64,000 nt of DNA from a virus (Duplodnaviria; Caudoviricetes): the IMG/VR virus record IMGVR_UViG_3300037424_000434, positions 160,001 through 224,000 of that record; one strand, given 5' to 3'. The notes below the pieces were generated by a model that saw nothing but the letters and a program-made list of their open reading frames with translations, did no database searches and had not been told where the DNA came from. This document shows positions 13,902 to 57,777 of this stretch, piece after piece. The position numbers and the translations under genes are program-made. How positions within the stretch are numbered: position 1 is the first letter of the stretch; each line of letters opens with the position of its first letter.

Positions 13902-14486
13902 ATGGGGTCAACAGAAAACAATGAATTGGATATAGAAGAGATTGATATAGAAGAGATTGATATAGAAGAGATTGATATAGAAGAGATTGATATAGAAGAG
14001 ATTGATATAGAAGAGATTGATATAGAAGACGAAGTGGTTATGGACGAGAAGGCGCTGTATTACGTGAGGAACAAAGATCTCATCCCCGAAATGGAAAAGC
14101 TGGCCGCTAAAGGTGTTATGTCTGAAGAACTTGGAAGAATGCTATTATTAATAGCAAAAAATCTTTCCAATAAAGGGAATTTTATAAATTATACATGGAA
14201 AGAAGACATGGTACAAGAAGCCGCGTTGACTTGTTGTAAATATTTAAAAAACTTTGATCTTAAAAAATCAAATAACCCCTTTTCATACATAACAACAATA
14301 TGTACTCATGCTTTTGTTAATTATATCAATAAACAGAGAAAGCACTCAGATATCAAAGATACATGTTTCAATGGAAAAGACCACATGTCAGACAGCGAAT
14401 TTGGATTTACAGTAAAAGCTATAGATTACACTTCAATGGCACCTGTCACTGAAAAGAAAAAGAAAAAGAAGAAAACTGATAGTTAA
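13902..14486 (+). CDS. gp55: Late-transcription sigma factor gp55
   Basis: YYVRNKDL..LGRMLLLIAKNLSNKGNFINYTWKEDMVQEA..NFD..NPFSYITTICTHAF; GGAGAAGG RBS before ATG 13902. Confidence 0.9.
   Translation: MGSTENNELDIEEIDIEEIDIEEIDIEEIDIEEIDIEEIDIEDEVVMDEKALYYVRNKDLIPEMEKLAAKGVMSEELGRMLLLIAKNLSNKGNFINYTWKEDMVQEAALTCCKYLKNFDLKKSNNPFSYITTICTHAFVNYINKQRKHSDIKDTCFNGKDHMSDSEFGFTVKAIDYTSMAPVTEKKKKKKKTDS
13929..14029 (+). repeat. Perfect 15-nt tandem repeat (gatatagaagagatt) x6.7 encoding DIEEI
   Basis: Read directly from sequence. Confidence 0.95.
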
Positions 14487-19499: not shown

Positions 19500-20087
19500 A
19501 TGATAGACTATATATGTTCTATAAATTCTTACGATAATGGCTTGCTCCGAGAGGAGATAGCCCCTCCAGTAACCCAAACCCTAGGGGTGAAACCAGAAGG
19601 TGACCGCGTAAGGGTTGCCATACATCGGAGGACCGAACCATCATACTATAATAATATGGAGGTTCAGGGCGCACCATTTGTCGAACAAGTGGTTTTTGAG
19701 TTGGTGAGGTTTTGTACTCAGAGCTGGATAGAAGATTATGTCGAAAATGGGGTATCTAAGGGGAGATATCACATAATATACACCTATTCCCTTGTGCCCG
19801 AGGGCACAAGGATCGAAGATAGTGCAATGCCTAACCATAGATATGATAGGTATGGATATTCAAATACCAATCCTTTCGGGAAAATAGACGAGGGGGAGTT
19901 GAGATATCGACTTGGTGTTATTGAGAGCACCCTCCAAGAGATGAACAAAAAACCTATACTTGATCGACAAGAATTTGAGCAGATAAAGACCCGATTTAGA
20001 GGTTTGGAACAAACAGAAATAGATATACCAAAAAGATTGAGGGAATTTGATTTTTTTGAAAATGATATTAACTTTAACGTGGAGTAG
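19500..20087 (+). CDS. Hypothetical protein
   Basis: 195 aa, closely spaced after gp47. Confidence 0.6.
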   Translation: MIDYICSINSYDNGLLREEIAPPVTQTLGVKPEGDRVRVAIHRRTEPSYYNNMEVQGAPFVEQVVFELVRFCTQSWIEDYVENGVSKGRYHIIYTYSLVPEGTRIEDSAMPNHRYDRYGYSNTNPFGKIDEGELRYRLGVIESTLQEMNKKPILDRQEFEQIKTRFRGLEQTEIDIPKRLREFDFFENDINFNVE

Positions 20088-22142: not shown

Positions 22143-24224
22143 TCATCATTTCTAGAGGCGATTCCCTTTGCTATATTCGGCCAAACAGGGAAGGGGGTTC
22201 CTTTAAATAAGATCATTAACTGGAAAAACGGAAAAGCGGCAGAGACACGTCTTCATTTCCGAAAAGATGGGATCAAATACGAACTTCAAAGGGGAATAAA
22301 ACCCGGAATATTAGAACTTATTAAAGATGGATCAAATGTACCCAAGTTGTCTGATAAGAGGATATTTCAACAAGAGATAGAAACTGATCTTATTGGGATG
22401 GACTTTAGAGCAGCGCAGGCTATCCATTTCCAGAACGCAAACAATATGATTTCTATGTTCAATACCCCAAAAGCCGATAAACGAAAATTTATCGAGAAAT
22501 TCTTTAATCTAGAGGTGTATTCTCAATTAAATGAACTGGCTAACTCGAAGCTGCGTGGGATAGAGCTAAAACGCTCCGAATTGGATTCAGAGCGTTCTTT
22601 TAAACAAAAGAGGGCGGTAGAACTTGAAGATGAAATAAGACGTTGTATTGCACCAAACATTGAGGACTATGAGCTATCTGTTGTTGCAGCAGAAGCCGCA
22701 TTGAATGATTTTCGTTCATCAAACAAAGAAGCTTTGTTGTATAATGAAACCACTCTCAGCGAACAGTTCGAAAGTGTTCGCGCCACTGTTGAGGTGAAGC
22801 GAAAAGAACTTGACGTGTTAAGAGGTAAAATAAAGGCCATTGAGTTGGAATTAAGGGGTTTAGAGGTACAAAAAGCATCTTTAACCAAGCGTGTTATTGA
22901 TATCGGGGATTTGAGTGCCCAGAGAGACAAGTTAAACCGATTAAGAGACGGGCTTGTTCTCATAGGGAACCTTGATATTCAAGCAGATGAGCACCGAAAA
23001 GCATTGGCCGCTCACTCACTTGACAAGGATATTATTGAAAAGAAAAAAACCGAACTACAGACTGAGATGAGGTTGGTGGAGAAAGAGATTCGTAAATGGC
23101 AGAGCACTAATATATTAGAGGATTCTGACTGCCCGACCTGTTTTCAGAAATCAAATCCCGAGCACATTAAAGTACATGTTGATACACAGGTACAATTCTA
23201 TACCACCAAGTTCAACGAATTACAGGTTGAGCTTGAAACCCAGCTCGTTACACTCAGGGATGTTGTCGAAAAACTCACAAAAGCTCGTGAGGCTTTGACG
23301 CTGGTCGAAGATAAAAATTCCAAGAAAGTCGTTATTGAAAAGAGGATAGCAGAGTTATCAAATGTTTCGGAAAAAGAGGCAGAGTTAGTATCTATTAATA
23401 TTCAATTAACGGAATGTGATAGTAAATTGACTGTTCTGTCGGCCAGCCATGCAACAGAAAATGGGTCAATACCCTTATTAGAAGCATCAGTTCTGAGGGC
23501 AAATTCTTTGGTTGAAGAGACTCAAAAGATGTTGGATACATATCGACGAGTTAGTGCTGAATATGTTAGAATGGTTGAGAAGGTCGAGTCGGAGAAAAAA
23601 ATTCTAGCATCACAGAAAGAAATCGCCGAGAGAATCAAACTGGACCAAGAAGTTCGCATAGCCAGCAAAGCACAACTTGAGCTAGAACTTGCTGGATGGG
23701 ATGCTCAGTACAAAAAACTTGATACAATGAAGGATTATTTGTCCTACATCAAAGAAACCTTGAAGGATGAGAATGTTAAACAGTATGCTATCAGTAACAT
23801 TGTCCCGTTTGTGCAGAAACAGACCAATCATTACCTCGCAGAGACAGGCCATAATTATTATATTGAGCTAGACAATTGGCTGGAGGGAACAATTAAGGGA
23901 TTCGGTGTTGGGGAGAGCGATTTTGGTAATATGTCTGGTGGGGAAGGTAAGAGCATAGATCTGGCGTTGAAATTCGCTATGATGGATGTAGCCAGAAGCC
24001 AAGCAGGATCTTATCTGGATATTTTGGTTCTGGATGAGTTATTGGACAGTTCCATTGATAGTTTTGGTCTGGAAAGAACCATTGACATAGTTCGGCTAAA
24101 ACAAAGAGAGGATTTATTAAAAGTTTTTGTTGTTTCTCATAGGGACGAGATTGGCGCGTTTGATTTTGACCATACATATAACGTGGTCAAAGAGAATGGG
24201 TTTTCTGCTATATCGGTGGTCTGA
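21777..24224 (+). CDS. gp46: Split intein C-fragment fused to gp46 C-extein
   Basis: 122-aa intein part ending ILSHN, then SSFLEAIPFAIFG, coiled coil with CPTC zinc hook, MSGGE signature, LVLDE Walker B, VVSH. Confidence 0.92.
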   Translation: MKTTVKQIYDFYKKHPKHIGKVKTLTPFGMKTIQGADITAYNSEIISISTDSKLLECSPNHRVRFNNKWVHVVDLRLGDLIDTVDGSESVNGISKLDLREDLYDFQVEEVHQYYTNGILSHNSSFLEAIPFAIFGQTGKGVPLNKIINWKNGKAAETRLHFRKDGIKYELQRGIKPGILELIKDGSNVPKLSDKRIFQQEIETDLIGMDFRAAQAIHFQNANNMISMFNTPKADKRKFIEKFFNLEVYSQLNELANSKLRGIELKRSELDSERSFKQKRAVELEDEIRRCIAPNIEDYELSVVAAEAALNDFRSSNKEALLYNETTLSEQFESVRATVEVKRKELDVLRGKIKAIELELRGLEVQKASLTKRVIDIGDLSAQRDKLNRLRDGLVLIGNLDIQADEHRKALAAHSLDKDIIEKKKTELQTEMRLVEKEIRKWQSTNILEDSDCPTCFQKSNPEHIKVHVDTQVQFYTTKFNELQVELETQLVTLRDVVEKLTKAREALTLVEDKNSKKVVIEKRIAELSNVSEKEAELVSINIQLTECDSKLTVLSASHATENGSIPLLEASVLRANSLVEETQKMLDTYRRVSAEYVRMVEKVESEKKILASQKEIAERIKLDQEVRIASKAQLELELAGWDAQYKKLDTMKDYLSYIKETLKDENVKQYAISNIVPFVQKQTNHYLAETGHNYYIELDNWLEGTIKGFGVGESDFGNMSGGEGKSIDLALKFAMMDVARSQAGSYLDILVLDELLDSSIDSFGLERTIDIVRLKQREDLLKVFVVSHRDEIGAFDFDHTYNVVKENGFSAISVV

Positions 24225-24607
24225 TGGATCATTGTCACTATTGGAACAATAAACGAGTATGTATAGGGTTTGATTGTGACATATGTGATTATGCCAAAGA
24301 GTATCACAGGAAGAATTCTACATGTTTTTCTGCCCGTAAAATAGGATATGGTGGGGGGAAAAATTGCGGTGTATGCACCATCTGCTCTCATAGAGTATGT
24401 GTATACACACAAAAGCCATGTGTTCAATGTGAAGAATGTTTTGAGCCGTTCGGCATGGAGCAATGTGAATCATGCACAAACTTTGACCAAGAAGATGTTT
24501 TGTGGGTTAAACACAAAGATTGTAGATATGAAAGAAGGGCCGATTATGTCAGGGTACAGCGATATTGGGACGAAAATGAGTTAGACGAGGATCTGTTTAG
24601 TGTATGA
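24224..24607 (+). CDS. Cys-rich hypothetical protein
   Basis: 127 aa with many CxxC; ends ELDEDLFSV. Confidence 0.65.
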   Translation: MDHCHYWNNKRVCIGFDCDICDYAKEYHRKNSTCFSARKIGYGGGKNCGVCTICSHRVCVYTQKPCVQCEECFEPFGMEQCESCTNFDQEDVLWVKHKDCRYERRADYVRVQRYWDENELDEDLFSV

Positions 24608-25012
24608 AATGTGTGGTAGCTGGTAGCAGAAAGATAGATGATTATCGGATACTGGATTGTTTGTTTACAACACACTTCTGGCGTGATAAGATAGTGGAAA
24701 TAGTATCAGGGGGGGGCTAAAGGGGTTGATCGATTGGGAGAAATTTTAGCGGAATCAAGAGGATTGAAGTGCTCATTGTTCCCCGCAGATTGGGAAAAGT
24801 ATGGGAGAAAAGCGGGATATTTGCGCAACGATCAAATGGCAAGATATACCGATGTTGCGATAATTTTGTGGGATGGCCAGAGTCGTGGTACAAAGCATAT
24901 GATTGATTTGATGATGAAATACGACAAGCCATGTGACATACATATCATCAAAAATGGAATATTAGATAAACCCAACCATTTTGAAGAGAGCTTGTTTTGG
25001 GTGTGGGAGTAA
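24604..25012 (+). pseudogene. SLOG/DUF2493 (YspA-like) gene broken by +1 frameshift in a G8 run
   Basis: MKCVVAGSRK..EIVSGG | AKGVDRLGE..WEKYGRKAGYLRNDQM..WDGQSRGTKHMI; G8 at 24709-24716 gives TAA, G7 restores frame. Confidence 0.8.
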
Positions 25013-25123
25013 ATAGCATCAAAAGTGTGGGGATATTGATTACCATAAAAGAAGGAATCCGATGTTAATAGTGATATCGGTATATATTTACATTAATCAA
25101 CAATAAAAGAGAGGAATTAAAGC

Positions 25124-25597
25124 ATGGCGAGTCGATTTGAAGAAGCAACAAGTGATGTGGTAGCGCAAGTAAACGAGGTTGTTAGGACCAAGTTTCCCAG
25201 CCTCAGTGGATGTCTTATTGAGGTTGTGATGGACACAAAAAAGCGCAAATCGGGGGGTAAATATAGTCTAGTCAAGCTGGACAAGGCATCCCCTATCATC
25301 AAGCATATTTCGGCGGATAATACCAATGAGTTTGGTTTGGATTATATTTTATACATCGACCAGAAGGTATATAACGAGTTGAGCGAATCTGACCGTATCC
25401 GTCTCATTTCTCATGGTCTTTATCATTCTGACGTGGATTTTGAAAAAGAAAATCCATATGCTTGTCGTAAACCAACGGTACAGACGTTCTGCGAAGAAAT
25501 TCACGACAATGAGGACGACCCTCGTTGGGCGGAACGTCTTGATCTGATCGCGGAGGGTGTGTATGAGCGCGAGGCCGAAGCCAATGGGGAAGCATAA
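25124..25597 (+). CDS. Phage metallopeptidase-like protein
   Basis: 157 aa; LISHGLYH at the position of HELxH; strong RBS. Confidence 0.55.
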   Translation: MASRFEEATSDVVAQVNEVVRTKFPSLSGCLIEVVMDTKKRKSGGKYSLVKLDKASPIIKHISADNTNEFGLDYILYIDQKVYNELSESDRIRLISHGLYHSDVDFEKENPYACRKPTVQTFCEEIHDNEDDPRWAERLDLIAEGVYEREAEANGEA

Positions 25598-26045
25598 AGA
25601 CGACGAGGATGTTGAACGAGCAAAATACATGCTCACACCAGAAGACTTTGATGGGGGGTTCCATAACGTGGAACCTCCCGCAGAGTTCTATGCAGAAGAA
25701 GAGAAGAAAGCATCTGAAGCAGAAACCTTTATTGGTATGGATGACAGTTTCAACGGTATCCCACACAAAACTGACAGGGTACAAGTAGTATTTTCTCCCG
25801 AGGAGTTGGTGATTTTGACCCAAGTTTTGGAGAATTATTCCACCCATATAATAGGGGTGGAATATGTGTACGAAGAACTTGGATACGACGAAATATATCA
25901 ACACCAAACACTTGTACGCGGACTAAGAGATGTTGTCAATGACACATTAGAGCATTACATAAAAGTTAGACCCTATAGCCCTTTTATTGTTCCATGGGTT
26001 AATCGAATAGGTAAAGGAAAAATCCGCAACAAAGGGCAGAAATGA
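25584..26045 (+). CDS. Hypothetical protein
   Basis: ATG 25584 preferred over track start 25557. Confidence 0.6.
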   Translation: MGKHKDDEDVERAKYMLTPEDFDGGFHNVEPPAEFYAEEEKKASEAETFIGMDDSFNGIPHKTDRVQVVFSPEELVILTQVLENYSTHIIGVEYVYEELGYDEIYQHQTLVRGLRDVVNDTLEHYIKVRPYSPFIVPWVNRIGKGKIRNKGQK

Positions 26046-26254
26046 TGTTTGGTTGTAGATTTGGGTTTCATAAATTTGTGCCATATAGATACAACTGGGT
26101 AGAATATATGCCTACCCAGCAAAACCCTAGGTTCAGTAAAGAAGGGGCAGAGATTTTGTCGCATGTATATTGTACTGTGTGTGGTGAGATTCGGGAGGTG
26201 ATGAATGTTGAGGGAAAAATGGTTAAATACGTCAGACCTGCGAAGAGCGTTTGA
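26042..26254 (+). CDS. Small Zn-binding hypothetical (C..H / CxxC)
   Basis: CRFGFHK and CTVC motifs; ATGA overlap. Confidence 0.6.
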   Translation: MMFGCRFGFHKFVPYRYNWVEYMPTQQNPRFSKEGAEILSHVYCTVCGEIREVMNVEGKMVKYVRPAKSV

Positions 26255-26777
26255 GTATGCAAACGCAACAGGGAAGGGGTTTTCGCGAATATTGTTTTTG
26301 TGTCCTAAAGGCTCAGGAAAGACTACCGCTTTGTTTGAAATTTTTTTACAAACCCCTGACTCGGTGTTTCTTACACCCTATGGAAGTCATTTAAATCATT
26401 TACGTCAGCGGGCTGATAGAATAGAATATGGCCGAGGATCTAACCTGAAACCAATGTATGATATATTACCGTTCACCAATACAAGTCCTTTGGGTAGGGG
26501 ACATAGACCGATTTCCTGTGTGTTTATAGATGATTTGGATCGATGTATACATTCTTTTATAGCGTCGTATCAACACCTAGTATCCAATATAACATCAACC
26601 AACAGTTCCAGACGGGGTATAATGGCAACCATGACTCCCAGAGAAGACAGGAACATAAACTATCAGGGGTTTTTTGACTATATCAAGCGCCCCTTTTCCC
26701 CTGATCAAGATTCGTCCATTGACAAAAAGGATTTTTACAGAACAGACCATTTTGAGGGAGACTTGTTTAAAGTATGA
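26205..26777 (+). CDS. P-loop NTPase-like fragment
   Basis: CPKGSGKT Walker A and VFIDD Walker B-like; ends DHFEGDLFKV; start uncertain. Confidence 0.55.
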   Translation: MLREKWLNTSDLRRAFEYANATGKGFSRILFLCPKGSGKTTALFEIFLQTPDSVFLTPYGSHLNHLRQRADRIEYGRGSNLKPMYDILPFTNTSPLGRGHRPISCVFIDDLDRCIHSFIASYQHLVSNITSTNSSRRGIMATMTPREDRNINYQGFFDYIKRPFSPDQDSSIDKKDFYRTDHFEGDLFKV

Positions 26778-27160
26778 ACGATAAAAGAACAGATGGGGTG
26801 GATTATGAATATAATGTTCCACCCAACAAGTCCGAGGATACACTAACAGCGTCTTGTATTAGCTACTTACGGGACAAAGGATTGACCGTATACAAAGCAA
26901 CCAATCCTTTAGTTATATACGAAGACAGAATTATCAACATGCAGACCTTTTTGATGTTGCGTGGTGATATAAACGAGGCTATGGATGAGGTGTATGAGAA
27001 AATTGTAATCAAAAATCCAAAAATAGTGTTGGTCCATTCAGTCAAACAAACATATAATTTTATATCAAAAGATGTTGCTGTGAAATCAAATCTGTCTTTT
27101 GATGATTCCTGTGTGGATGAATATAGATATATTAGATATGGAGTAATTGAAAATGAGTAA
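26774..27160 (+). CDS. Hypothetical protein
   Basis: 128 aa, ATGA overlap. Confidence 0.6.
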   Translation: MNDKRTDGVDYEYNVPPNKSEDTLTASCISYLRDKGLTVYKATNPLVIYEDRIINMQTFLMLRGDINEAMDEVYEKIVIKNPKIVLVHSVKQTYNFISKDVAVKSNLSFDDSCVDEYRYIRYGVIENE

Positions 27161-27662
27161 ACCATTAACAGAAGGATCAACTATGGGTGGAATGTCACCA
27201 AAGAAACAAGATAGTGCATTTTCAATGCGACCACCTATGCCACGACTAATGACCCCAAAAACGAAAATGTCATTGCGCGAACAAGATTGGTTGGAATTCT
27301 CTGATCGTGTAGCCAAACATTTGAGAGAATACACCGTTCCTCAATATGGAGATAAGCCCGATGACGAAATATCAAGATATTCGGTGGAGGTTTGTGTTGA
27401 AGCTGTTGCGAAATATGCAAAACGTTACGACAAGCAAAGCAGACAGGGACAACAGGAGCTGGATTTTGTGAAAATGGCACATTATGCTCAATGTGCATGG
27501 GAGAAGTACAACAAAATCCCGGTAATACACGCTGCATATAAACTAATCCCGTATGACACAAAATGGACAGAAGAGGATGTAGCAAAGAATAGTGGTATGG
27601 AATATATCGGAAAGTTCACCTTCAACGGTGCGGTAAAATATGTATACAAGGAGTTAGTATGA
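27153..27662 (+). CDS. DUF3310-like protein
   Basis: AKYAKRY...DFVKMAHYAQ motif. Confidence 0.5.
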   Translation: MSKPLTEGSTMGGMSPKKQDSAFSMRPPMPRLMTPKTKMSLREQDWLEFSDRVAKHLREYTVPQYGDKPDDEISRYSVEVCVEAVAKYAKRYDKQSRQGQQELDFVKMAHYAQCAWEKYNKIPVIHAAYKLIPYDTKWTEEDVAKNSGMEYIGKFTFNGAVKYVYKELV

Positions 27663-28015
27663 GCGAAAGCGAGAGTCAATTTCAAAAATTTTTAGAAGAA
27701 GACCTAATTGAAGAAGTTGTATTTGAAATGGTCAATGAAAATCCCAGTAATCATGGGAAGGGATTTCGAACATATAAAATCACCCCATACTGGAAACCAG
27801 ACATGGCCCCAGAAGGGTTTTCGGATTTTTATTTTGAGACAGATATATACTGGTCGCCCTTTGAAACCGAATATTTTGATCAACTGGATCATTATACTCA
27901 TGGCGCGGCCTATGCTTTTATTGGATATGATCACGACGAGGAGGTCAAAAAGTTCGAAATCGATTGTAAAAAAGTATATGATGAGGAAATTTCGCCCATA
28001 TCCGGCGACGAATAG
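27659..28015 (+). CDS. Acidic hypothetical protein
   Basis: 118 aa, AGGAG RBS, ATGA overlap. Confidence 0.6.
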   Translation: MSESESQFQKFLEEDLIEEVVFEMVNENPSNHGKGFRTYKITPYWKPDMAPEGFSDFYFETDIYWSPFETEYFDQLDHYTHGAAYAFIGYDHDEEVKKFEIDCKKVYDEEISPISGDE

Positions 28016-28034
28016 AGGATTGTAAAATATATAA

Positions 28035-28086
28035 TATAAATACTTGGGAATAGTTGGTTTACAAATGTGTTAATATTTATTATAAT
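28035..28086 (+). promoter_or_regulatory. Tandem late (TATAAATA 28035) and GTTTACA-class sigma70 promoter (28058-28086) for uvsX
   Basis: TTTACA-N17-TATAAT exact. Confidence 0.8.
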
Positions 28087-28110
28087 AAGTAAAAAAATGT
28101 GAGGTAGAAT

Positions 28111-29220
28111 ATGTCCAATACGTTTGATTTAATTAAAGAAAAACTGGAAAAGGCGGCAAAAGGCGATAGGATGATGATTCTAAGTGAATCAGAAAATGCC
28201 GCGCCGATAGTGTATATACCAACAGAAGCATACGACCTGAACAGAATCCTGTCAGGCTCATTGTACCACGGGGTTGCAAGTCGAACCCATACCCTATTAG
28301 TGGGACCAGAAGCATCTGGTAAATCTTCCTTTATGTGTCTTAATCTCGCAGCCGCCCAAAAAATGGGTTATACCCCCGTTGTTATTGATGCCGAGGGAGC
28401 ATGGACAAAAAAGTTCTGTGAACGATGGGGTATTGATACCACAAGAGCGTTTATAATTTCTACTCCATGGGTAGAAGAAATTATGATAGAGCTTGCTAAG
28501 ATCATTGATGAGGGTTGGACTAGATTGGCTATTGCGTTTGATTCCATTGGTGCGGTTGAGTCACTTAAGATGATCGACGATGTTACCGGCAAGGGGAAGC
28601 GGGGAGAAGTTGTTGCCGATCAGGGAGGGTTGCAGAAGAAAATCAAACGTCTTATGAAAATGTTGGTTGATATCACCAAGCGCCAAGACTCTGTTTCTTA
28701 TTCTGCTGGACATTACTATGGTAACCCAACAGGATATGGAGAACCAGAAAAGATCGGTGGGGGATTTTACCCGAGACTCGCCGCAGATTACATCATAACT
28801 CTGAAAAAAGCTCTTATCCACGAAAACCCCACAGCAAAAACTGCGGCAGAAAAAGGGGATGTCGTTGGTACCAGAATATATGCTGCAACGATAAAAAATA
28901 GATACGCACCACCCTTTCAGGAGGCAGTGTTTGAAATCTCATATCATAATGGTGTACAACGATTGGCTGGTATCATTGATGTAGCCAAAGAAATGGGTAT
29001 TATTGATCAATCAGGCGCATGGTATACAGTTCCATGTCTGGGGATAAAATCCCAAGGCCAAGGTAACCTAGAAAAAGACCTCGAAAATGTTGATATCCAA
29101 CCCCTGTTTGATGAGATTGAAAAAATTCTGGAAGGTAGAGGATACAGCAGTGCTAAAGATGAATTGAAGGTTTTGGCTGATGTTGTTGATGGGGTGACAC
29201 CCACAGAAGTGCTATCATGA
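28111..29220 (+). CDS. uvsX: UvsX/RecA-like recombinase
   Basis: GPEASGKS Walker A, IDAEGA, AFDSIGA, IGGG, IKNRYAPPF. Confidence 0.95.
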   Translation: MSNTFDLIKEKLEKAAKGDRMMILSESENAAPIVYIPTEAYDLNRILSGSLYHGVASRTHTLLVGPEASGKSSFMCLNLAAAQKMGYTPVVIDAEGAWTKKFCERWGIDTTRAFIISTPWVEEIMIELAKIIDEGWTRLAIAFDSIGAVESLKMIDDVTGKGKRGEVVADQGGLQKKIKRLMKMLVDITKRQDSVSYSAGHYYGNPTGYGEPEKIGGGFYPRLAADYIITLKKALIHENPTAKTAAEKGDVVGTRIYAATIKNRYAPPFQEAVFEISYHNGVQRLAGIIDVAKEMGIIDQSGAWYTVPCLGIKSQGQGNLEKDLENVDIQPLFDEIEKILEGRGYSSAKDELKVLADVVDGVTPTEVLS

Positions 29221-29402
29221 CCTCAGAAGAAAGAAGTGATGCACTTGAGTTGATAGCTCGGCGGTTAGAATCAAAAAATAGATCAAAGAAATCTGAAGAG
29301 GTTCTTCGTGAATTGTATGAACTTGTCGATGATTATAATGCTTTTATACGAGATATGGACGTGAGATTCGACAAGATATTGATACGGGTGGAGAATCTAT
29401 GA
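29217..29402 (+). CDS. Hypothetical protein
   Basis: 61 aa, ATGA overlaps both sides. Confidence 0.55.
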   Translation: MTSEERSDALELIARRLESKNRSKKSEEVLRELYELVDDYNAFIRDMDVRFDKILIRVENL

Positions 29403-29626
29403 ACATACAAGAATTTCGATTACTACCACAATATAAGGATATGTCGCGAACCAATGGTTTAAAAGTAGGTGATAAATTCCTGACTGGCGCAAGAGTATTA
29501 AACCAAGTTGACAGCAAACACGTCAATGACATGATTACATACTATGTTGTGATACAAGTTCAAACAAATGGTAATATTAGTTATAAACAAGAGATGGAGA
29601 GATTAACCGGACAAGAGGAGGAGTAA
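29399..29626 (+). CDS. Hypothetical protein
   Basis: 75 aa, GGAG RBS. Confidence 0.55.
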   Translation: MNIQEFRLLPQYKDMSRTNGLKVGDKFLTGARVLNQVDSKHVNDMITYYVVIQVQTNGNISYKQEMERLTGQEEE

Positions 29627-29630
29627 CTAG

Positions 29631-29960
29631 ATGGTGGCAATACAGGTGTTTGTAATAAGTTATGAAACAAAGGTTTCGACGTTCAAGGCGTATTTGTTGG
29701 CAGAGTCAAAAGCGGATGCAATGTCTTATCTTAAAGCAGAGATGGGAGACCAAGAGGGATTTAGAATCAACAATTTTGAGTCCCGAGAAGAAATACACGC
29801 AATCACTACTCAAGTATTAGACAAGATTCGTGGACCAAAACAGGAAGCAAAAGTTGTGGAGAATGTTAAGTTGCTTTGCCCGTGGTGTGAGTCAACCGAT
29901 TATTTGTCGAATCATGCATTAAAGATGCATATAGTTAAAGCACACAAAAAGGAGAAGTAA
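29631..29960 (+). CDS. C2H2 zinc-finger protein
   Basis: CPWC...ALKMHIVKAH. Confidence 0.65.
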   Translation: MVAIQVFVISYETKVSTFKAYLLAESKADAMSYLKAEMGDQEGFRINNFESREEIHAITTQVLDKIRGPKQEAKVVENVKLLCPWCESTDYLSNHALKMHIVKAHKKEK

Positions 29961-30037
29961 TGGAACCGGGACGGGTTGATATTGGGAACTTGCCGAAAAA
30001 CAAAGCAGAAGAATATATCAAAAAAGGATTATATTGA
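29960..30037 (+). CDS. 25-aa micro-ORF carrying a portal (gp20)-like motif
   Basis: MEPGRVDIGNLPKNKAEEYIKKGLY; AAGGAG RBS, TAATG and TGATG coupling. Confidence 0.55.
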   Translation: MEPGRVDIGNLPKNKAEEYIKKGLY

Positions 30038-30888
30038 TGAAGATATCCGTTAATAACATTGATTCCTTGTTGAGAGTTGAACTTAGCAAAATTGCTAGTA
30101 TTGTCGATATTGATGATGCTAGCAATGGTCTTTTTCTTATATGGACCAATGCAGACGAAAAGGAGATGTTTGACAGGCAGACCCACCTGATCACAACTGC
30201 TATCAACAAAAAGATGCCTATCATTATTTTTGACAAATATCAAACCATGGACCCGGATGAAATATCGTTTATGATGAAGTCAGGGGTTTTTCTGTGGGAA
30301 CCTGCTGTGGCTGATAGGATGTTCTTTTCATTTCAGCCTGTTTGGGGTAGGTTGCGGTTAACACCCCAAGACATTCCATGGGACTTTGATTCGGAAAAAA
30401 GACCCATAGATCTCGCGTATATGTCATCGATGATACAAAAAATGCCCACGTTCAAAAAATACTTCGCTCCCATCGCAGAGATTGGCGAATTTAGAGTTTA
30501 CTATTTCGACAAGATTGGGAGCGAGAACATTAACAGAAAGATAGAAGAAATCGGTGTTACAGTGGGGCCTCAGACCAATATCAACAAAACAAAAATGACG
30601 CTTTTACTGGGAACCGATCAAGATTATAGAGTTGGCAGACTTGACCCCAAATTATTTGAGTATCTTGAGGCTGGTATAGTTCCAATGTTACCCGTGGAGC
30701 ATAGATGGTATCATAGTGTTTTTAGAGATTTGACCGTTGATGGCGAAGATCAAATCGAATATTTTCTCCGAACAGTTGACAGGATAGGCTTTGGGTCAGT
30801 CTATGAGATATACCAGAACATCAACGACAACTTACCCGAAGCGGATGTGATTAATGTGGCAAAGAGAATAAAGACCTTTTTTGAATAA
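30037..30888 (+). CDS. GT-B glycosyltransferase-like protein
   Basis: RPIDLAYMSS and KMTLLLG..GRLDPKLFEYLEAGIVPML resemble GT-B C-terminal domains such as T4 BGT. Confidence 0.45.
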   Translation: MKISVNNIDSLLRVELSKIASIVDIDDASNGLFLIWTNADEKEMFDRQTHLITTAINKKMPIIIFDKYQTMDPDEISFMMKSGVFLWEPAVADRMFFSFQPVWGRLRLTPQDIPWDFDSEKRPIDLAYMSSMIQKMPTFKKYFAPIAEIGEFRVYYFDKIGSENINRKIEEIGVTVGPQTNINKTKMTLLLGTDQDYRVGRLDPKLFEYLEAGIVPMLPVEHRWYHSVFRDLTVDGEDQIEYFLRTVDRIGFGSVYEIYQNINDNLPEADVINVAKRIKTFFE

Positions 30889-30891
30889 AAC

Positions 30892-30919
30892 AAAAGCCCC
30901 TAGAAGATTAGGGGCTTTT
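30892..30919 (+). terminator. Intrinsic terminator
   Basis: aaaagcccct-N8-aggggctttt. Confidence 0.85.
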
Positions 30920-31037
30920 AATTTGATAACCTAAATACCTAAAATCAAAAGATTTTTCGCTTTTTTGTTTACATCAAAGACAAAGTATGTCATGCTTGTA
31001 TATGTTACAATTGCGAATAAAAGGAAAAGGTGATTTT

Positions 31038-31346
31038 ATGGAATTTAAGTACACGGACAAAGGCACGTGTTTGATTGAGATAAACACGAGTGTGTATATG
31101 TCGTTCGGTGATGCAGAAGAAATTCGATTTGTCCATGTTAAGTATTCAACTCCCCACACTTCGATATCACGGATGTTTCCTATACCGCTATCAAAACTAC
31201 CAAAGGACTGTACCACATCTTTTGGCAAAAAGAACATCAAACAGATTAGAGAGCTATTGCAAAAATTTTCTGTTGGCGGTACTCTGGACAGAAAACATCT
31301 AAAGAAAATCGGAGACGCTATAAATCGTGCAGAAAAAAGTAAATGA
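31038..31346 (+). CDS. Hypothetical protein
   Basis: ATG 31038 follows AAGG RBS. Confidence 0.55.
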   Translation: MEFKYTDKGTCLIEINTSVYMSFGDAEEIRFVHVKYSTPHTSISRMFPIPLSKLPKDCTTSFGKKNIKQIRELLQKFSVGGTLDRKHLKKIGDAINRAEKSK

Positions 31347-31542
31347 TTGTTTGTATATCAGACCCTCCATTGAAAGCATTGACCTTGCAAAAGAAATATG
31401 CGACACTCACCTATTTCTCACAACACATATCACAATGTTGAGTGTGAGAAATTTCCTAGTAATCATGCATGACCCAAACCATAGATGTTTTGTTTGTAAA
31501 CAGATCCATACCGCAAACAAAACAGAAAAAATTCTTTTTTAA
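31327..31542 (+). CDS. Hypothetical protein
   Basis: 71 aa, GGAG upstream. Confidence 0.35.
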   Translation: MQKKVNDCLYIRPSIESIDLAKEICDTHLFLTTHITMLSVRNFLVIMHDPNHRCFVCKQIHTANKTEKILF

Positions 31543-31560
31543 AGTAACCTGTATTTTTTG

Positions 31561-31589
31561 TTGACAGGGCAGGATTTTGGTGTTATGGT
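31561..31589 (+). promoter_or_regulatory. Sigma70 promoter, TTGACA class
   Basis: TTGACA-N17-TATGGT after T-tract. Confidence 0.65.
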
Positions 31590-31629
31590 GTAGTTGTGGT
31601 TAACGAAATCCCAAACAAAAGGACAAAAA

Positions 31630-31761
31630 ATGAAAGCATTTTCTGGTGAACTTGGCCAAGGTCGCAAGGTCTCTTCTGAGTATGAAAAAGAATTAGCTCT
31701 TATCAAAGAGATGAAAGCTAAAGGGGAAACCCCCTACAGAAACCTTGTTCACGTGGTCTAA
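31630..31761 (+). CDS. 43-aa hypothetical protein
   Basis: [18 protein letters not shown]...; AAGGA RBS; not in ORF track. Confidence 0.5.
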
Positions 31762-31776
31762 GAAAGGACTAATGTA

Positions 31777-33987
31777 ATGAATCGTTGGAACACAAATAAC
31801 ATGCAGGTGTCGCGTCCAGAACCTTTTCGGGTTGAAGTTCTCGATGAAGAAATGGATACCAAGGTCATTAATGATTTTCTCTTAAAGTTTGGTCGTGATC
31901 TGGTAGCAGAAGCCCGACAAGGAAACCAAGATCCGGTTATCGGGCGTGATGATGAGATTCGCCGGGTAGTTCGTATTCTGTCACGAAAAACAAAAAACAA
32001 TCCTATTCTGATTGGAGAACCCGGTGTTGGCAAAACCGCCATTGTCGAAGGTTTGGCTCAACGGATTGTTAGGGGCGATGTACCGAACTCAATGAAAGAT
32101 AAGTATATTTATGCACTCGATCTTGGGTCACTGATGGCCGGTGCCAGTATGCAAGGAGAACTCGAAAAACGAGTCAAGGATATCTTGGACTACATCAAAG
32201 GCCAAGACGGACAAATCATGTTATTCATCGATGAAATCCATAGCATGGTGGGTATGGGAGCGGGCAACGGTGTAGATATGGGCAACATGCTCAAGCCAAT
32301 GTTGGCTCGTGGGGAACTTCGTTGTATCGGTGCTACCACCTTGGATGAGTACCGAGAAAATGTGGAAAAAGATGCCGCATTGGAAAGACGATTTCAAACC
32401 ATTATCGTGGATCAACCGAGTGTTGAAGATACGATTTCAATGCTTCGTGGGCTGAAGTCTAGATACGAAGTTTATCATGGAGTTACTATTCGTGATACGG
32501 CTTTGGTTGTTGCGGCTGAGCTATCCCATAGGTATATCTCGGACCGGTTTCTACCAGACAAAGCAATTGATCTTGTTGACGAGGCATGTGCTATGGTTCG
32601 GACTGAGCTTGACTCGAATCCGGCAGAACTTGACGGAATGCTCCGTAAAATCCAACAACTTAAAATCGAGGAAAGCGCGTTAACAGGCGAACCTGACCAA
32701 AGTTCGGCGGATCGATTGATTGCTATCCAAGCGGAAATTTCCGGACTAACCCCGATTGCAGATGATATGACCACTCGCTGGACGAATGAGAAGGCGCTAA
32801 TCTTGAGTGTTACCACTCTTCGAAAAAACCTGTCCACTGCCAGAAAAGAGCTTGAAACCTGTCAGCGACAAGAAGAATTGGAACGTGCGGGGGAACTTCA
32901 GTACGGCCTGATTCCCCAAATGGAATCCGAAGTTCATAATGCCGAAGAAGCATTGTCGGCTCTTAATGGTTCCGCTCTGTGCCATGACGCGATCAATGAA
33001 GATGAGATTGCGCAAGTGGTTTCTCGTTGGACGGGAATTCCCGTCTCCCGCCTGACCGAGGGAGAGATCGAAAAGATTCTTGGTCTCCGAGCAAAAATGG
33101 GTGGTCAGGTGATTGGCCAAGAGGAAGCAATAGAATCAGTGTCTGATGCTATCATTCGTTCTCGCTCTGGCATTAAAGACCCCGCCCGCCCTATTGGATC
33201 GTTCATCTTTCTTGGACCCACTGGGGTGGGAAAAACTGAGTTGGCAAAATGTTTGACTCGCGAAATGTTTGACACTGAACAAAATATGATTCGGGTTGAT
33301 ATGTCTGAATATATGGAAAAACATAGTGTGGCACGGTTAATTGGTGCTCCTCCCGGTTATATCGGATACAATGAGGGTGGCCAGCTTACCGAAGCGGTAC
33401 GCCGCAAACCATTTTCAGTGATCCTGTTTGATGAAATTGAAAAGGCGCACCCAGATGTCTTTAATACCCTCCTTCAGATCCTTGATGATGGACGTTGCAC
33501 TGATGGCCATGGCAGAACAGTTAGTTTCAAAAATACCATTATCATCATGACCAGCAATATCGGTTCACAGCCTCTTATTACAGGGATTGACGGTTCTGGT
33601 CACATTAAAGAGGCGGCACGTGACAAGGTTATGGACGAACTTAAGAGGGGGTTCCGACCCGAGTTCCTTAATCGGATTGATGATATCATCCTCTTTAAGC
33701 CATTGGGTATGGCTGAAATCAAGGTTATTATTGAATTGATGCTCCAAGATATCCGTGATCGGTTATCTGGTCGCAGGATTGACATACAGTTGACAGATGT
33801 GGCCAAAGAGTTTGTTGCTGAAGTAGCATATGATCCAATCTATGGCGCTCGTCCCCTGAAAAGATTTTTGATCCACAACCTCGAAACCGAAATCGGGAAA
33901 GCCCTTCTCCGGGGAATTGTAAAAGACGGTGATATCATTCAAGTTGATGCTAATAGAGAAGATGGTTTGGTTATTAGCGTAGTTTAA
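31777..33987 (+). CDS. clpB: ClpB-like AAA+ disaggregase lacking the N-terminal domain
   Basis: [14 protein letters not shown], coiled-coil middle domain, [38 protein letters not shown]. Confidence 0.95.
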
Positions 33988-33997
33988 TAAAACCAAA

Positions 33998-34040
33998 GAA
34001 TGTTTGCGTTCACGAACAATGTCATTAAACGCAAACATTC
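33998..34040 (+). terminator. 13-bp inverted repeat after clpB
   Basis: gaatgtttgcgtt / aacgcaaacattc. Confidence 0.6.
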
Positions 34041-34129
34041 CACCTTTTACCAAAATTAACCTTGACATATATAAGTAATCTATGGTACTGTTGGACTATA
34101 AAGATAACCCATACAAAGGAGAAACAACA

Positions 34130-34999
34130 ATGACAATTTCTACCCCTAACGTTAATCCATTTTTTCCGGTCGAGCGTCAAAAACTTTTTGCCTCATTCGA
34201 GGACGAGCAAGTATATGTTGACCGGGATGGTTTGCTGAATGCCGAAACCGGTGGTGTCTTGGGCACGGTTGGTGTCAAGTATAAACTGGTGCCGAATGCC
34301 GAAGTTAATTCTATCTTCGAGGAGGCTTTTCAAAATCTTCCCGTTGAATTCACTAAAGACCATTTGAACTCAAACGAGTCACGCTGGCAACGTGATATCA
34401 TTCTTGATGGTGATCAGTTTACCCGCACCATTGGATTGAATGATGTGGTTAAGACTAAAATCTCGGTTTGGAATGGTTATGATGGTCGTACCGGGGTTGG
34501 GTTTGCCCTTTCAGCATACCGCCAAATCTGCGAAAACGGCATGATGGGATGGAGAAAAATGTTCGGTTCAAATCTGCCGCATCTTGGACCCCACGTTATC
34601 ACCAAGATCCAACGGGATTTTGATAAATCATTCCAAGGATTTCAACAGAATTTTGATGTCTGGGAGTCAATGGCCAATCAACGATTCACCCATATCGATT
34701 TCAAGAACTTTATCGAGTCTCGGGTCAAACGTACCAACGATGCAGGTAAGGTTATTGGGTACTTGAGTGATCGTCAAGCTGACGCAATCACCGATCAATA
34801 CGCTCCGATTCTGAACAAATACCGTGACGACGAGACTCGCTGGGCGAGTCTGAATGTCATCACAGCGATTGCAACCCATCACACGGAGGCGCGCGAAGGT
34901 GGTTCGAGTATCTTCTCAGCGGGATATTCAAGGCTTGAGAAATTGGCTCAAGACTTCATGACATTCGATGCAAACTCTGATCTTTTTGTGGTGAGTTAA
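34130..34999 (+). CDS. DUF932-like protein
   Basis: LGTVGVKYKLVPN...WNGYDG...RQICENGM motif; AAGGAG RBS. Confidence 0.75.
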   Translation: MTISTPNVNPFFPVERQKLFASFEDEQVYVDRDGLLNAETGGVLGTVGVKYKLVPNAEVNSIFEEAFQNLPVEFTKDHLNSNESRWQRDIILDGDQFTRTIGLNDVVKTKISVWNGYDGRTGVGFALSAYRQICENGMMGWRKMFGSNLPHLGPHVITKIQRDFDKSFQGFQQNFDVWESMANQRFTHIDFKNFIESRVKRTNDAGKVIGYLSDRQADAITDQYAPILNKYRDDETRWASLNVITAIATHHTEAREGGSSIFSAGYSRLEKLAQDFMTFDANSDLFVVS

Positions 35000-35050
35000 T
35001 GATGGAGAGAGTGGACACTAAATAAACCACTAATCATCGCTTGATTTGAA

Positions 35051-35083
35051 TATAAATACTCCTAGTGAAAGCTGGGGGTATTT
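35051..35083 (+). promoter_or_regulatory. Late promoter TATAAATA overlapping an RBS-sequestering hairpin
   Basis: TATAAATA 35051-58; aaatactcctag / ctgggggtattt stem. Confidence 0.75.
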
Positions 35084-35087
35084 TTTT

Positions 35088-35345
35088 ATGACAAAATGTG
35101 ACATTTGTTCTACATTAGCGTATACAGAGAAACACCACATAGTATCAAAATCATGTGGAGGTTCTAACGCAAAACATAACATAACCCATATATGTTCAAT
35201 CTGCCATGGATTGGTTCATCGTGGTGTCCGGGTCATAGAGGGCAAATTCATGACATCTGATGGTATAAAAGTTATCTGGCATGACATAGACGAGGACACA
35301 ATAACAGGTAGAGAACCAGAGGTTTATGTGATGGGCAAGAAATAA
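35088..35345 (+). CDS. HNH endonuclease
   Basis: CDIC..EKHHIVSKSCGGSN..NITHICSICHGLVH. Confidence 0.85.
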   Translation: MTKCDICSTLAYTEKHHIVSKSCGGSNAKHNITHICSICHGLVHRGVRVIEGKFMTSDGIKVIWHDIDEDTITGREPEVYVMGKK

Positions 35346-35377
35346 TTAAAATTTTTTTCAGAAAAATAGAAAATTTT

Positions 35378-35385
35378 TATAAATA
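35378..35385 (+). promoter_or_regulatory. Late promoter TATAAATA
   Basis: Exact consensus in AT-rich intergenic DNA. Confidence 0.6.
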
Positions 35386-35422
35386 GAAGTAAGAAAGAAA
35401 AAAAACAGGAGATCAAACTTAC

Positions 35423-35533
35423 ATGTTTAGTATACATTTACAACCATTGTCAACCACATGTAATTCGGGCAAACCCGAGGCGGCACTCGTACGCTTTCAG
35501 GATAGTTGGAATTATATTACGGGGCAAATGTAA
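35423..35533 (+). CDS. 36-aa micro-ORF
   Basis: MFSIHLQPLSTTCNSGKPEAALVRFQDSWNYITGQM; AGGAG 11 nt upstream. Confidence 0.35.
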   Translation: MFSIHLQPLSTTCNSGKPEAALVRFQDSWNYITGQM

Positions 35534-35626
35534 ATGGTCTAAAGTTGAAGCATATATTCTTTAATGAGCCATTTACATGAGAACTGTAGATGGCTTTTGT
35601 TTTTGTAGGTCTTTGATAATTGAATA

Positions 35627-35655
35627 TTGACATGTAGTAAAAAGCATGATACTCT
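35627..35655 (+). promoter_or_regulatory. Sigma70 promoter, TTGACA class
   Basis: TTGACA-N17-TACTCT with TG extension. Confidence 0.6.
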
Positions 35656-35662
35656 ATAAACC

Positions 35663-35977
35663 ATGATAAATGTATGTTTTTGGTGTAATAGAGCTAAAGC
35701 TGAAGAGCAGGCAGGACAACCCGTTTATACTGACTATGAATTTTGTCCCTTATGTAAGAAGATATGTGAACAAGGAATAACCATAATTCAAGTCACAACC
35801 GAGTCTAATGGCAATCCGCCCGTCAGGGATGGTCTTTGTCCTACAGGTAAATGGGTTGTGGTATCAGAAAAAGAATTGGTGAGAGTATTGACAGACTCAC
35901 CAATTCTTGATACCATCCTGCTTGCTCGACAGTTATATGTAAACAAAAATGATTGGGGGAGCCTAAAACTCCCTTAA
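35663..35977 (+). CDS. Hypothetical protein (two CxxC)
   Basis: CFWC and CPLC motifs. Confidence 0.6.
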   Translation: MINVCFWCNRAKAEEQAGQPVYTDYEFCPLCKKICEQGITIIQVTTESNGNPPVRDGLCPTGKWVVVSEKELVRVLTDSPILDTILLARQLYVNKNDWGSLKLP

Positions 35978-35988
35978 AGGAGACCAAC

Positions 35989-36936
35989 GTGTTTAAAAAA
36001 TATTGTTCGATCACACATCATTACAACTCAAAGTATATTTCCAAGTGGATAACATATCATCCAGAACTGAAAGATGCTATGTACGTCGTTCACGAAAAAG
36101 TGGATGGATCTAATCTTCAGTTGATTTTTCGGCCAGAAGATAGTTTGGTTTATGCTAGCCGTAAGATGATCCTTGAACCCGAAGACGGGTTCAATGGGGT
36201 TAGACAAGTAATTGAGGGTATTTGGGATAATGGTCTTTGGCATATTCAGGAATATTCTCGTATAGAGAATGTAGTCGTGCGGTTGTATGGTGAATTCTTT
36301 GGACCCAAAATTCAAGGTAGAGTAGATTATGGACCAAACAAAGGGTTCCTGATCTTTGACATAGAAGTTGATGGATTCTGGCTGAGCCCAAGGGAAGTGG
36401 AAGACTTTCTATATGATTTGAAGTGCGATCATTTGATGGTTCCGGTCATAGCCTATGCCCATTCCCTTGAAGAGGCCTTGGAGTGTAACGTAAATTTAAA
36501 TTCTATGTTGACAAAGGCCGAGGGTGGTACTAATATAATGGAAGGTGGGGTAATCAAACCATATGAATTAGTTATTAGAACATCGGAAGGTTCAACATTC
36601 TATTTAAAAAAGACGAATAACGAATTCTCCGAGAAGTCTACAACCAAACCATGGAGGCAACTAGATGGGAGTAATACTCCAGAAGTTGTATCATGGCGCG
36701 ACACCTTCTGTCAGTATTTGAATGACAACCGGGTACTTTCGGTTTTTAGTAAATACGGTGAGATCGAAAAATCTGGCCAGATGGGGGATTATATTAGATA
36801 TATTCTCCAAGACGCCAAAGAATCCTTTTTAGAGGAAGAGACCGATTTTGATATCAATGAATATACGAAAGATGAATATAAGTTCATAACAAACGGTGGT
36901 AACGCCGTGGCGATGTTGCTTAAAAAATATCTATAG
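35989..36936 (+). CDS. RNA ligase, Rnl2 family
   Basis: HEKVDGSN motif I, YGEFFG, FDI, EGGVIKP, LKK; Rnl2-type C-terminus; GTG start after AAGGAG. Confidence 0.88.
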   Translation: MFKKYCSITHHYNSKYISKWITYHPELKDAMYVVHEKVDGSNLQLIFRPEDSLVYASRKMILEPEDGFNGVRQVIEGIWDNGLWHIQEYSRIENVVVRLYGEFFGPKIQGRVDYGPNKGFLIFDIEVDGFWLSPREVEDFLYDLKCDHLMVPVIAYAHSLEEALECNVNLNSMLTKAEGGTNIMEGGVIKPYELVIRTSEGSTFYLKKTNNEFSEKSTTKPWRQLDGSNTPEVVSWRDTFCQYLNDNRVLSVFSKYGEIEKSGQMGDYIRYILQDAKESFLEEETDFDINEYTKDEYKFITNGGNAVAMLLKKYL

Positions 36937-36973
36937 ACCAGTGAATAGTCTTGTGGGGATTCACAAAAAGCAT

Positions 36974-37044
36974 AGGGGCTTGGTGTAGTGGAAACATAAC
37001 CGACTTTGAATCAGTTGCCGAGAGTTCGATTCTCTCAGCCCCCG
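36974..37044 (+). tRNA. tRNA-Gln(TTG), no encoded CCA
   Basis: Cloverleaf, loop CTTTGAA. Confidence 0.8.
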
Positions 37045-37065
37045 GTAATTTGTGAAAGGATTGTC

Positions 37066-37611
37066 ATGACCAAACAGTATGAAGTATCTATAACCGTGAG
37101 ATCTGGGGAAGGAGTGATGGATAAAATCAGAGCACTGAGAGGGGTGTTTTCTTTTATACATCCATCGACAGGCGAAACCCAGTTTATGTTGAGTTTGAAG
37201 GAATCTTTCTGGTTAATTAATGAAGCACGTGATGGGGGTGTAATTTTATATTTATCCCCAAAAACGGCATTGGAACTCTCAGAAAAGGGATTTATAGTTA
37301 AACAACCAAATAACATATCCAAAGGTATTGTCGATGATGGCAGTGAGGAAATAATCACAGTTAGAATATATAAAGAAAATGATGGACTTAAGATCCAAGC
37401 AGTCAGAACCATACGTGCCGCACTTGGATATGGACTGATAGAATCAAAAGATTTGATTGAGGAAATTTGGCAAGACCGCGAACCGGTGGTTGTGGTTATG
37501 ACAAAAAGAGAGGCAACGATATTAATTGATGGTGGATTCGTGGTGGAGATTTTTCCCCCAGACACTGGACCTAACCATTTTGAACCAGATTTATTTGAAA
37601 TGTTCCCTTAG
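37066..37611 (+). CDS. Protein with two ribosomal bL12 C-terminal-like modules
   Basis: KIQAVRTIRAALGYGLIESKDLIE matches bL12 CTD pattern; degenerate N-terminal copy; track start 37006 lies inside tRNA-Gln. Confidence 0.6.
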   Translation: MTKQYEVSITVRSGEGVMDKIRALRGVFSFIHPSTGETQFMLSLKESFWLINEARDGGVILYLSPKTALELSEKGFIVKQPNNISKGIVDDGSEEIITVRIYKENDGLKIQAVRTIRAALGYGLIESKDLIEEIWQDREPVVVVMTKREATILIDGGFVVEIFPPDTGPNHFEPDLFEMFP

Positions 37612-37675
37612 TCTAATGGTAGGGCGGTGAGTTGCAACCTCACAAGCAACGGTTCGATTCCGTTAGGGAATTCCA
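37602..37675 (+). tRNA. tRNA-Cys(GCA)
   Basis: Cloverleaf, U73, CCA; overlaps stop codon of upstream ORF. Confidence 0.85.
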
Positions 37676-56869: not shown

Positions 56870-57265
56870 GTGGCATCAACCAAATTTTATCATTGTTCAC
56901 CGAAACGATTCAAGAAAGGTGATATATTAGTTTCTCCTTCAGCAGAAGAAGACCACAACTATCCCGGTATGGGATATGCGGGGGTTTTTGTTACCATCTC
57001 ACCCATACCTCACATGACCATTTGGGGTGATATCACCCGTAAATGGCAGGTTTATGAGGTTTCTCCTATTGGTCGCTTGTCCTATGGTATGTGGGGTGAT
57101 ATCATTTGCAAAAGAGCTATAGTATTGTCTCGTGTTGGAAACGCAATGGGAATTATGTCTAATTACAAAAAGACAAAAAAAATCAATGCTCGTGGGGGAT
57201 ATTCGTCGAACAAAGAAGTATATGTCACCCGAAAAGAGTGGGAGAAGATAAAGAAAGAATGGTAA
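56870..57265 (+). CDS. ADP-ribosyltransferase-like (Arr-like) protein
   Basis: FYHCS..FKKGDIL ... VFVT ... WG ... VYEVSPIG resembles the Arr H-Y/S fold pattern. Confidence 0.45.
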   Translation: MASTKFYHCSPKRFKKGDILVSPSAEEDHNYPGMGYAGVFVTISPIPHMTIWGDITRKWQVYEVSPIGRLSYGMWGDIICKRAIVLSRVGNAMGIMSNYKKTKKINARGGYSSNKEVYVTRKEWEKIKKEW

Positions 57266-57777
57266 GAGCACATTTTATAAGTGACCATCATTTATATCAC
57301 GGGAATATATTAAAATACTGTAATAGACCATTTGCCACAATCGAAGAAATGCATGAACATACCATTCAACAGTGGAATGAAGAAGTACCGCCTGATGGAA
57401 TTGTGGTTCATTTGGGTGATTATATTTGTGGCGGTACGTTTGAGCAGGTACAAACGATAACCAAGCAATTGAATGGATTTAAGATACTTGTTACAGGTAA
57501 CCATGATCGGAAAGGCAAGCAGTGGTTTCTTAAAGCAGGATTTGACCGGGTATTTAAATATAAGTGGACCATTGGCATGTATTGTTTCAGTCATAGACGA
57601 ATGAGTGTTGATTGGCTCATAGACAATGACGTGCAATATAACTTGCACGGTCATTGCCATAAGTTCCAGTATGGTGATCCCTATTGGAACTTTGGGGTAG
57701 ATATTATAGGATATAAACCAAAAGAAGTTGAACTAAATTTGTCGAAAGAGGATTTGTTTTATGGCGAAAGTAGATAA
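57259..57777 (+). CDS. Calcineurin-like metallophosphoesterase
   Basis: SDHHLYHGNI, HLGD, GNHD, HGHCH. Confidence 0.9.
   Translation: MVRAHFISDHHLYHGNILKYCNRPFATIEEMHEHTIQQWNEEVPPDGIVVHLGDYICGGTFEQVQTITKQLNGFKILVTGNHDRKGKQWFLKAGFDRVFKYKWTIGMYCFSHRRMSVDWLIDNDVQYNLHGHCHKFQYGDPYWNFGVDIIGYKPKEVELNLSKEDLFYGESR

Follow-up and report, generated by a model that had tools for sequence, protein, structure and literature searches.

A C-terminal tail shared by unrelated phage proteins

In the 64,000-nucleotide window analysed here (bases 160001-224000 of IMGVR_UViG_3300037424_000434, the single 235,765-bp contig of an uncultured T4-related phage), proteins with otherwise unrelated bodies end in the same short acidic and hydrophobic tail. 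The tag is genuine and conserved at the level of the protein, and the whole genome carries it on ~20 open reading frames (ORFs), i.e. 13 at genome 54.5-81 kb, six in the window and one at 224.9 kb. The set is larger than that given by the initial annotation, which had pointed to a shared C-terminal tag in the window and all of whose quoted peptides were found in place. We consider a docking peptide for one common partner the best reading of the tail, with about an even chance of being correct, and a turnover tag its main rival. The analysis also adds a separate polymerase-type class of tail with the reassignment of one ORF to it, evidence from a phage ClpP and from Ala-Ala endings, a structural model of the tail, and the conservation of the tail in orthologues of the window carriers. 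No description of such a tail was found in the searchable literature.

Translated in all six frames, the genome contains the strict word [ND]HFE..LF three times, in each case 2-4 residues before a stop, compared with a chance expectation of ~0.01 by our own estimate from composition. A scan of all C-termini placed it, as the 'HF' variant, within a wider form, hydrophobic(-5)-x-[DE]-[DE]-L-F(0)-x-[LVI](+2)-COOH. When 20 tails were aligned on the Phe as position 0, F was present in 20/20, preceded at -1 by L (18/20) or M (2/20), at -2 by D or E (17/20), at -3 by E (12/20) and at -5 by F or L (14/20); position +2 was L, V or I in 17/20, and the stop codon followed it immediately in 16/20. Among the ~71,400 residues of 376 called ORFs, [DE][DE]LF was found 18 times, of which nine lay exactly two residues from the C-terminus versus ~0.1 expected, and one lay five residues from it. 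The DNA pattern for [DE][DE]-L-F-x-hydrophobic-stop yielded 11 matches in the genome versus none for the reversed control, and seven versus one in a 51-kb IMG/VR relative. Thus, the tail is enriched above chance genome-wide.

The tail is selected as a peptide and sits on a flexible tether

A DNA or RNA element at gene ends, common descent of the carriers, or plain chance might also place one word at many C-termini. Two carrier pairs are indeed related (54552/55349 and 65756/67175), and the 10-nt word ACCATTTTGA is common to three tails. However, these two pairs were the only links detected by BLASTP between carrier bodies from which the last ten residues had been removed, so the statement that the carriers are otherwise unrelated holds for the remaining bodies, which genome-wide also include Zn-ribbon and Cys-rich proteins. 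Five codons (TTG, CTA, TTA, CTG and CTT) are used for the tail Leu, both TTT and TTC for the Phe, and both codons each for Asp and Glu, while the sequences 3′ of the tail stop codons are unrelated, with no conserved DNA among them. Such synonymous drift without a conserved flank bears out the protein-level selection proposed initially. A conservation tracking the DNA word out of frame was looked for as well: ACCATTTTGA occurs four times on the + strand, three of these being tails, all in frame, and the shorter word CATTTTGA has 12 and 12 occurrences versus 6 expected, with no out-of-frame clustering, so the DNA-element test fails to refute the tail. With an enrichment ~100-fold over expectation and a reversed-pattern control of zero in addition, this origin of the tail was tested and not supported, and we regard it as highly improbable.

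Over the 15 residues that precede the tail, proline shows a 3.4-fold enrichment. In an AlphaFold2 model of the carrier with a DUF932 domain, based on a 33-sequence alignment, the body had a mean pLDDT of 87 and its last helix spanned residues 264-277, whereas residues 278-289 including the tail were modelled as coil, with a pLDDT of ~47 over 281-289. Foldseek comparison of this model with the PDB gave no match. As modelled, the tail has the build of a short linear motif attached by a tether.

The tail persists in relatives while linkers and proteins change

Homologues of the same proteins were queried for the tail. For three carriers of the window, namely the P-loop, DUF932 and bL12-like ones, orthologues at 30-65% identity retain it; those in the related contigs all end in ..DLF[ETK]I, while their linkers vary in length and sequence. 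The P-loop orthologues end in EHFKEQGDLFEI (L013), EHFKDEGDLFTI (L016) and NYFEEGLFEI (L026). For DUF932, 24 of 31 homologues, down to ~40% identity, have [DE]LF.[IV] at the C-terminus, and the stretch linking the tail to the last conserved helix is variable in both length and sequence. The bL12-like orthologues end in [ED]DLFEI even at 29-35% identity, and the tail L and F are two of only 13 invariant columns in their alignment. The order UvsX - ClpB - DUF932 - bL12-like is kept in related contigs. No relatives of the P-loop, DUF932 or phosphoesterase carriers came from single-protein searches of IMG/VR, no homologue of the P-loop protein from a word-based protein search, and no matches from BLAST against deposited phages.

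The 51-kb relative possesses an early cluster of 8-10 tailed mini-proteins (e.g. NHFEEGLFEI, DHFEDDLFEI), most of them without a homologue in the genome studied here, which indicates that the tail persists while the proteins turn over. The DUF2493 carrier gives a further view of this modularity: PF10686 is found in its homologues, of which 118 of 120 lack a tail and terminate immediately beyond the last strand, so the DUF2493 tail is a 14-residue addition. On distant bL12-CTD-like phage proteins at six IMG/VR loci no tail was found, nor in the neighbourhoods of these genes, which makes it specific to this clade.

A proposed docking peptide for a common partner

The tail is therefore defined in motif and position, conserved at the protein level and modular, and from this we infer a single reader and a tethering outcome. 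In such a mechanism, the T4-related clade would have equipped at least 20 non-structural proteins, unrelated to one another, with the tail, usually at the very end behind a Pro-rich or disordered linker; its acidic and hydrophobic residues, possibly on one face of a short helix, would plug into one basic and hydrophobic groove; and the common partner would thereby tether many accessory proteins to the same place. This docking reading is suggested by the positional enrichment, codon drift, unrelated bodies, orthologue retention, Pro enrichment and low-confidence coil described above. The tail appended to a DUF2493 domain that normally ends earlier, the early cluster of the 51-kb relative, the T4 precedent from the same virus family (PMC2988020) and the SSB-type tip borne by another phage protein point the same way. 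The common docking or sorting signal proposed initially is partly supported, in that a modular signal stands on the C-terminal enrichment, the orthologue retention, the variable Pro-rich or disordered linkers and the DUF2493 addition. If one reader handled ~8% of a large phage's genes via a transferable eight-residue tag, ~20 proteins of unassigned function would gain a shared context, and finding it would expose a phage-host or phage-phage interaction hub; the tag itself is short and portable.

Three points weigh against docking. Family searches of the genome recovered no phage-encoded classic reader of C-terminal peptides, being negative for PDZ, TPR_12, Ank_2, HSP20, SspB, ClpX, the beta clamp (DnaN) and a second AAA_2 unfoldase. 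The tail is also missing from every replisome and transcription protein that could be recognised (polymerase, gp44, gp62-like, gp32, UvsX, gp46/47, gp55). Finally, a degradation tag fits the same anatomy equally well.

The phage polymerase keeps a different tail

The genome encodes a T4-type DNA polymerase (phrog_262) as well as other T4-type genes, i.e. a clamp loader, a gp45-like clamp, gp32, UvsX and the late sigma factor gp55. In T4, the C-termini of gp43, gp33 and gp55 share hydrophobic-acidic epitopes for the clamp that can replace one another and sit on unstructured linkers (PMC2988020). The polymerase here ends in QAFNFFFGG, and those of five relatives in Q[AS]F[NK].FF(G). Throughout the proteome the pattern [LF][DN]F[LF][FYLE] was found twice, both times near a C-terminus, in the polymerase and in ORF 19500. 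The clade thus keeps a separate T4-type tail. ORF 19500, listed initially as a looser member of the tag, belongs to this polymerase-type class instead; since its end EFDFFENDINFNVE matches the polymerase tail and that of no other protein, we regard it as a possible client of the clamp. The ORF lies between gp47 and gp46 and belongs to no family, and an Atlas search gave no usable structural match. Neither of the other T4 epitope bearers offers a counterpart, in that gp55 has a Lys run and then TDS at its end, with no hydrophobic tail, and no gp33 was recognised in the phage. A family search of the genome for the gp59 N-domain gave no match, though its control gave none either.

These tails bear on the possibility that the ~20 carriers are 'tool-belt' clients of the phage's own gp45-type sliding clamp, one of the candidates named initially. 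The start of the RB69 polymerase peptide resembles the tail core [SD]-L-F-x-hydrophobic, the P-loop carrier looks like a helicase domain in its model, and the window carriers are located among recombination genes. The architecture matches too: in T4 as here, unrelated proteins of one phage have as their extreme C-terminus a short peptide with hydrophobic and acidic residues, preceded by an unstructured linker of divergent sequence (PMC2988020). This T4-like architecture is the part of the proposal that stands. In sequence and register, however, the tail differs from the phage's own conserved polymerase tail (QAFNFFFGG versus [DE][DE]LF.[LVI]), which recurs elsewhere only in ORF 19500, whereas the clamp epitopes of the T4 clients are nearly identical and interchangeable; the T4 epitopes sit on the polymerase and gp55, whereas gp55 here lacks such a tail and the tail sits on ~20 mostly tiny proteins whose clamp binding is only putative; and the polymerase would face competition from ~20 small clients. 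With a separate T4-type tail kept by the clade, the contact made by the tail is probably not the polymerase-clamp epitope. The polymerase and gp55 ends thus argue, though not decisively, against the phage clamp as the reader on the basis of sequence. PCNA accepts divergent motifs (PMC6881253), and since motif divergence alone may be compatible with one pocket, we kept the clamp reading, lowered as it is, as an unlikely one.

Turnover, host mimicry and packaging as alternatives

The same anatomy might mark proteins for scheduled removal: transiently needed non-structural proteins would be handed, directly or via an adaptor, to a Clp-type or other AAA+ protease, and the machinery could be the phage ClpP with a host unfoldase. 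The phage encodes a bona fide stand-alone ClpP and a tmRNA whose tag ends in ALAA (Table 1), the core of which, E-D-N-F-A-L, loosely resembles [DE][DE]-L-F-x-L. Of the 150 best representatives of DUF932, 26 end in Ala-Ala (RLAA, KLAA, ALAA etc.), versus ~1 expected by our own estimate, so that out-of-clade members have an ssrA-like Ala-Ala at the position where the clade has the LF tail, a match in position that hints at a possible role of the tail in degradation. Many members of DUF932, a mobile-element family, may themselves carry an ssrA-like degron, judging from these endings. The ssrA tag and the ClpX C-motif-1 degrons also resemble the tail in being transferable C-terminal peptides on unrelated proteins. 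The structural module (95-178 kb) contains no tail (~3.7 expected, own estimate), as turnover would have it, although this absence fits docking or turnover alike.

Set against this, no carrier ends in Ala-Ala, the terminal (L/V)-A-A that defines ClpX C-motif-1 degrons being absent from the strongly acidic tail, and the L at -1, the tail's most conserved residue after the Phe, is replaced by N in the tmRNA tag. DUF2493 homologues did not show the Ala-Ala pattern, the hint comes from one family only, and some of the carriers are enzymes for which a short lifetime is not required. No adaptor was found, nor any phage unfoldase with a ClpP-docking loop. The genome lacks ClpX and ClpA, and its sole Clp ATPase and only AAA_2 protein is a ClpB, a genuine disaggregase with the middle domain but with neither the N-domain nor the ClpP-docking loop. 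This ClpB, suggested initially as a possible reader, is thus an unlikely one, being otherwise an ordinary disaggregase. On balance, the tail as a virus-owned address label, i.e. a clade-specific turnover tag read by Clp machinery that is partly phage-supplied (ClpP, tmRNA), is a tentative alternative that we think may well be wrong. If it were true, removal of the early and middle proteins would follow a schedule, and such a timer acting across the proteome is not known from phages.

The tail could instead mimic a host docking peptide and serve take-over, its target in the host being the beta clamp, proteins that bind the SSB tip, or some other abundant protein. Its [SD]LF recurs in the bacterial clamp motif QL[SD]LF, which is often terminal as well, and its acidic residues followed by hydrophobic-x-hydrophobic-COOH are shared with the F-D-D-D-I-P-F tip of SSB, which likewise stands behind a disordered Pro-rich linker and ends in a free carboxylate. 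Most carriers are small and lie in variable, early-looking regions, and a genuine DDDIPF tip exists on another phage protein. The latter is a 121-aa non-SSB protein on the minus strand (genome 81629-81994; L005:1629-1994) in which a Pro/Arg/Ser-rich linker joins a small helical body to the C-terminal LLDDDIPF; such an SSB-type tip on a non-SSB protein suggests that the phage uses tail-borne docking peptides. Yet the tail has no Q or L at positions 1-2 of the clamp motif, the two residues before the [SD]-equivalent being mostly D, P or N and E, and it has conserved hydrophobics at +2 after the F and at -5. It also ends in L-F-x-[LVI], and none of the tails has the terminal I-P-F after an Asp run. 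Moreover, SSB offers one tail to many partners, whereas here there are presumably many tail-bearers and one partner. We therefore give host mimicry a small chance.

A capsid-packaging tag, also suggested initially, is not borne out, since the structural module is tail-free. In T4, capsid targeting relies on an N-terminal leader of late packaged proteins cut after [LI]-x-E, whereas the tail is C-terminal, and TATAAATA was not found directly upstream of any carrier. A prohead-protease site [LI]-x-E within the tail was considered and rejected, because relatives do not keep the pattern and a cut five residues from the end is implausible. As a separate observation, many genes start with MR[LF]xxY[LI]xE, resembling capsid-targeting leaders (genome 56830, 65136, 66666, 52052, 52844, 53589 and others). 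Some of these leader genes adjoin tailed genes and have TATAAATA just upstream (65091, 66522), which suggests two different tag systems interleaved in one region.

Window carriers and neighbouring features

Nearly all genes of the window lie on the + strand, and the genome holds 27 tRNAs besides the tmRNA. The features discussed are listed in Table 1.

Table 1. Tail carriers and context features; positions refer to the window unless marked as genome.
Feature	Position	Strand	Remarks
Cys-rich 127-aa protein, end LDEDLFSV	24224..24607	+	Tail 24578-24604; canonical, F two residues from end; no Pfam or PHROG family
DUF2493/SLOG gene, end NHFEESLFWVWE	24604..25012	+	Tail 24974-25009
P-loop protein, 190 aa, end DHFEGDLFKV	26205..26777	+	Tail 26745-26774
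DUF932 protein, end ANSDLFVVS	34130..34999	+	Tail ~34973-34996; Pfam PF06067
bL12-CTD-like protein, end NHFEPDLFEMFP	37066..37611	+	Tail 37573-37608; between tRNA-Gln and tRNA-Cys
Metallophosphoesterase, end SKEDLFYGESR	57259..57777	+	Loose, candidate member only
195-aa ORF, end EFDFFENDINFNVE	19500..20087	+	Not a tail member; T4-type polymerase pattern
gp55	13854-14486		phrog_234, E 7e-35
ClpB without N-domain	31777..33987	+	Context; directly 5′ of the DUF932 carrier in all relatives seen
tmRNA, tag AEDNFALAA	50355..50709	+	Context
gp45-type sliding clamp	genome 4722-5483
ClpP, stand-alone	genome 43114-43656 (L003:3114-3656)		Pfam CLP_protease, E 4e-45

In the DUF2493/SLOG gene, a run of eight Gs (24709-24716) has one G too many for a continuous frame and splits the gene into two frames; seven Gs would give a single protein of ~135 aa. 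The break reflects either a genuine frameshift or an error in sequencing the homopolymer. The Atlas model of the P-loop protein resembles a lone domain 1 of an SF2 helicase (TM ~0.6 to DEAD/ResIII models), and the next two ORFs (region 26205-27662) have no family; this region may represent a split or degenerate UvsW-like helicase. As to the metallophosphoesterase (57238-57777 in its longer extent), the ending EDLFYGESR is present as noted initially but fits the tail only loosely, and a single-protein search of IMG/VR found no orthologue. The host was sought via relatives of the phage ClpB, which gave ~60% identity to many phyla and hence no usable signal.

On an unrelated phage contig (L032, IMGVR_UViG_3300010373_000128), 8 of 35 called ORFs end in Ala-Ala. 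The bL12-CTD-like gene (window 36973-37675; also seen in L010, L013, L016 and L018) is always preceded by tRNA-Gln and stands at the head of the tRNA cluster, and tRNA-Cys comes next in most relatives seen.

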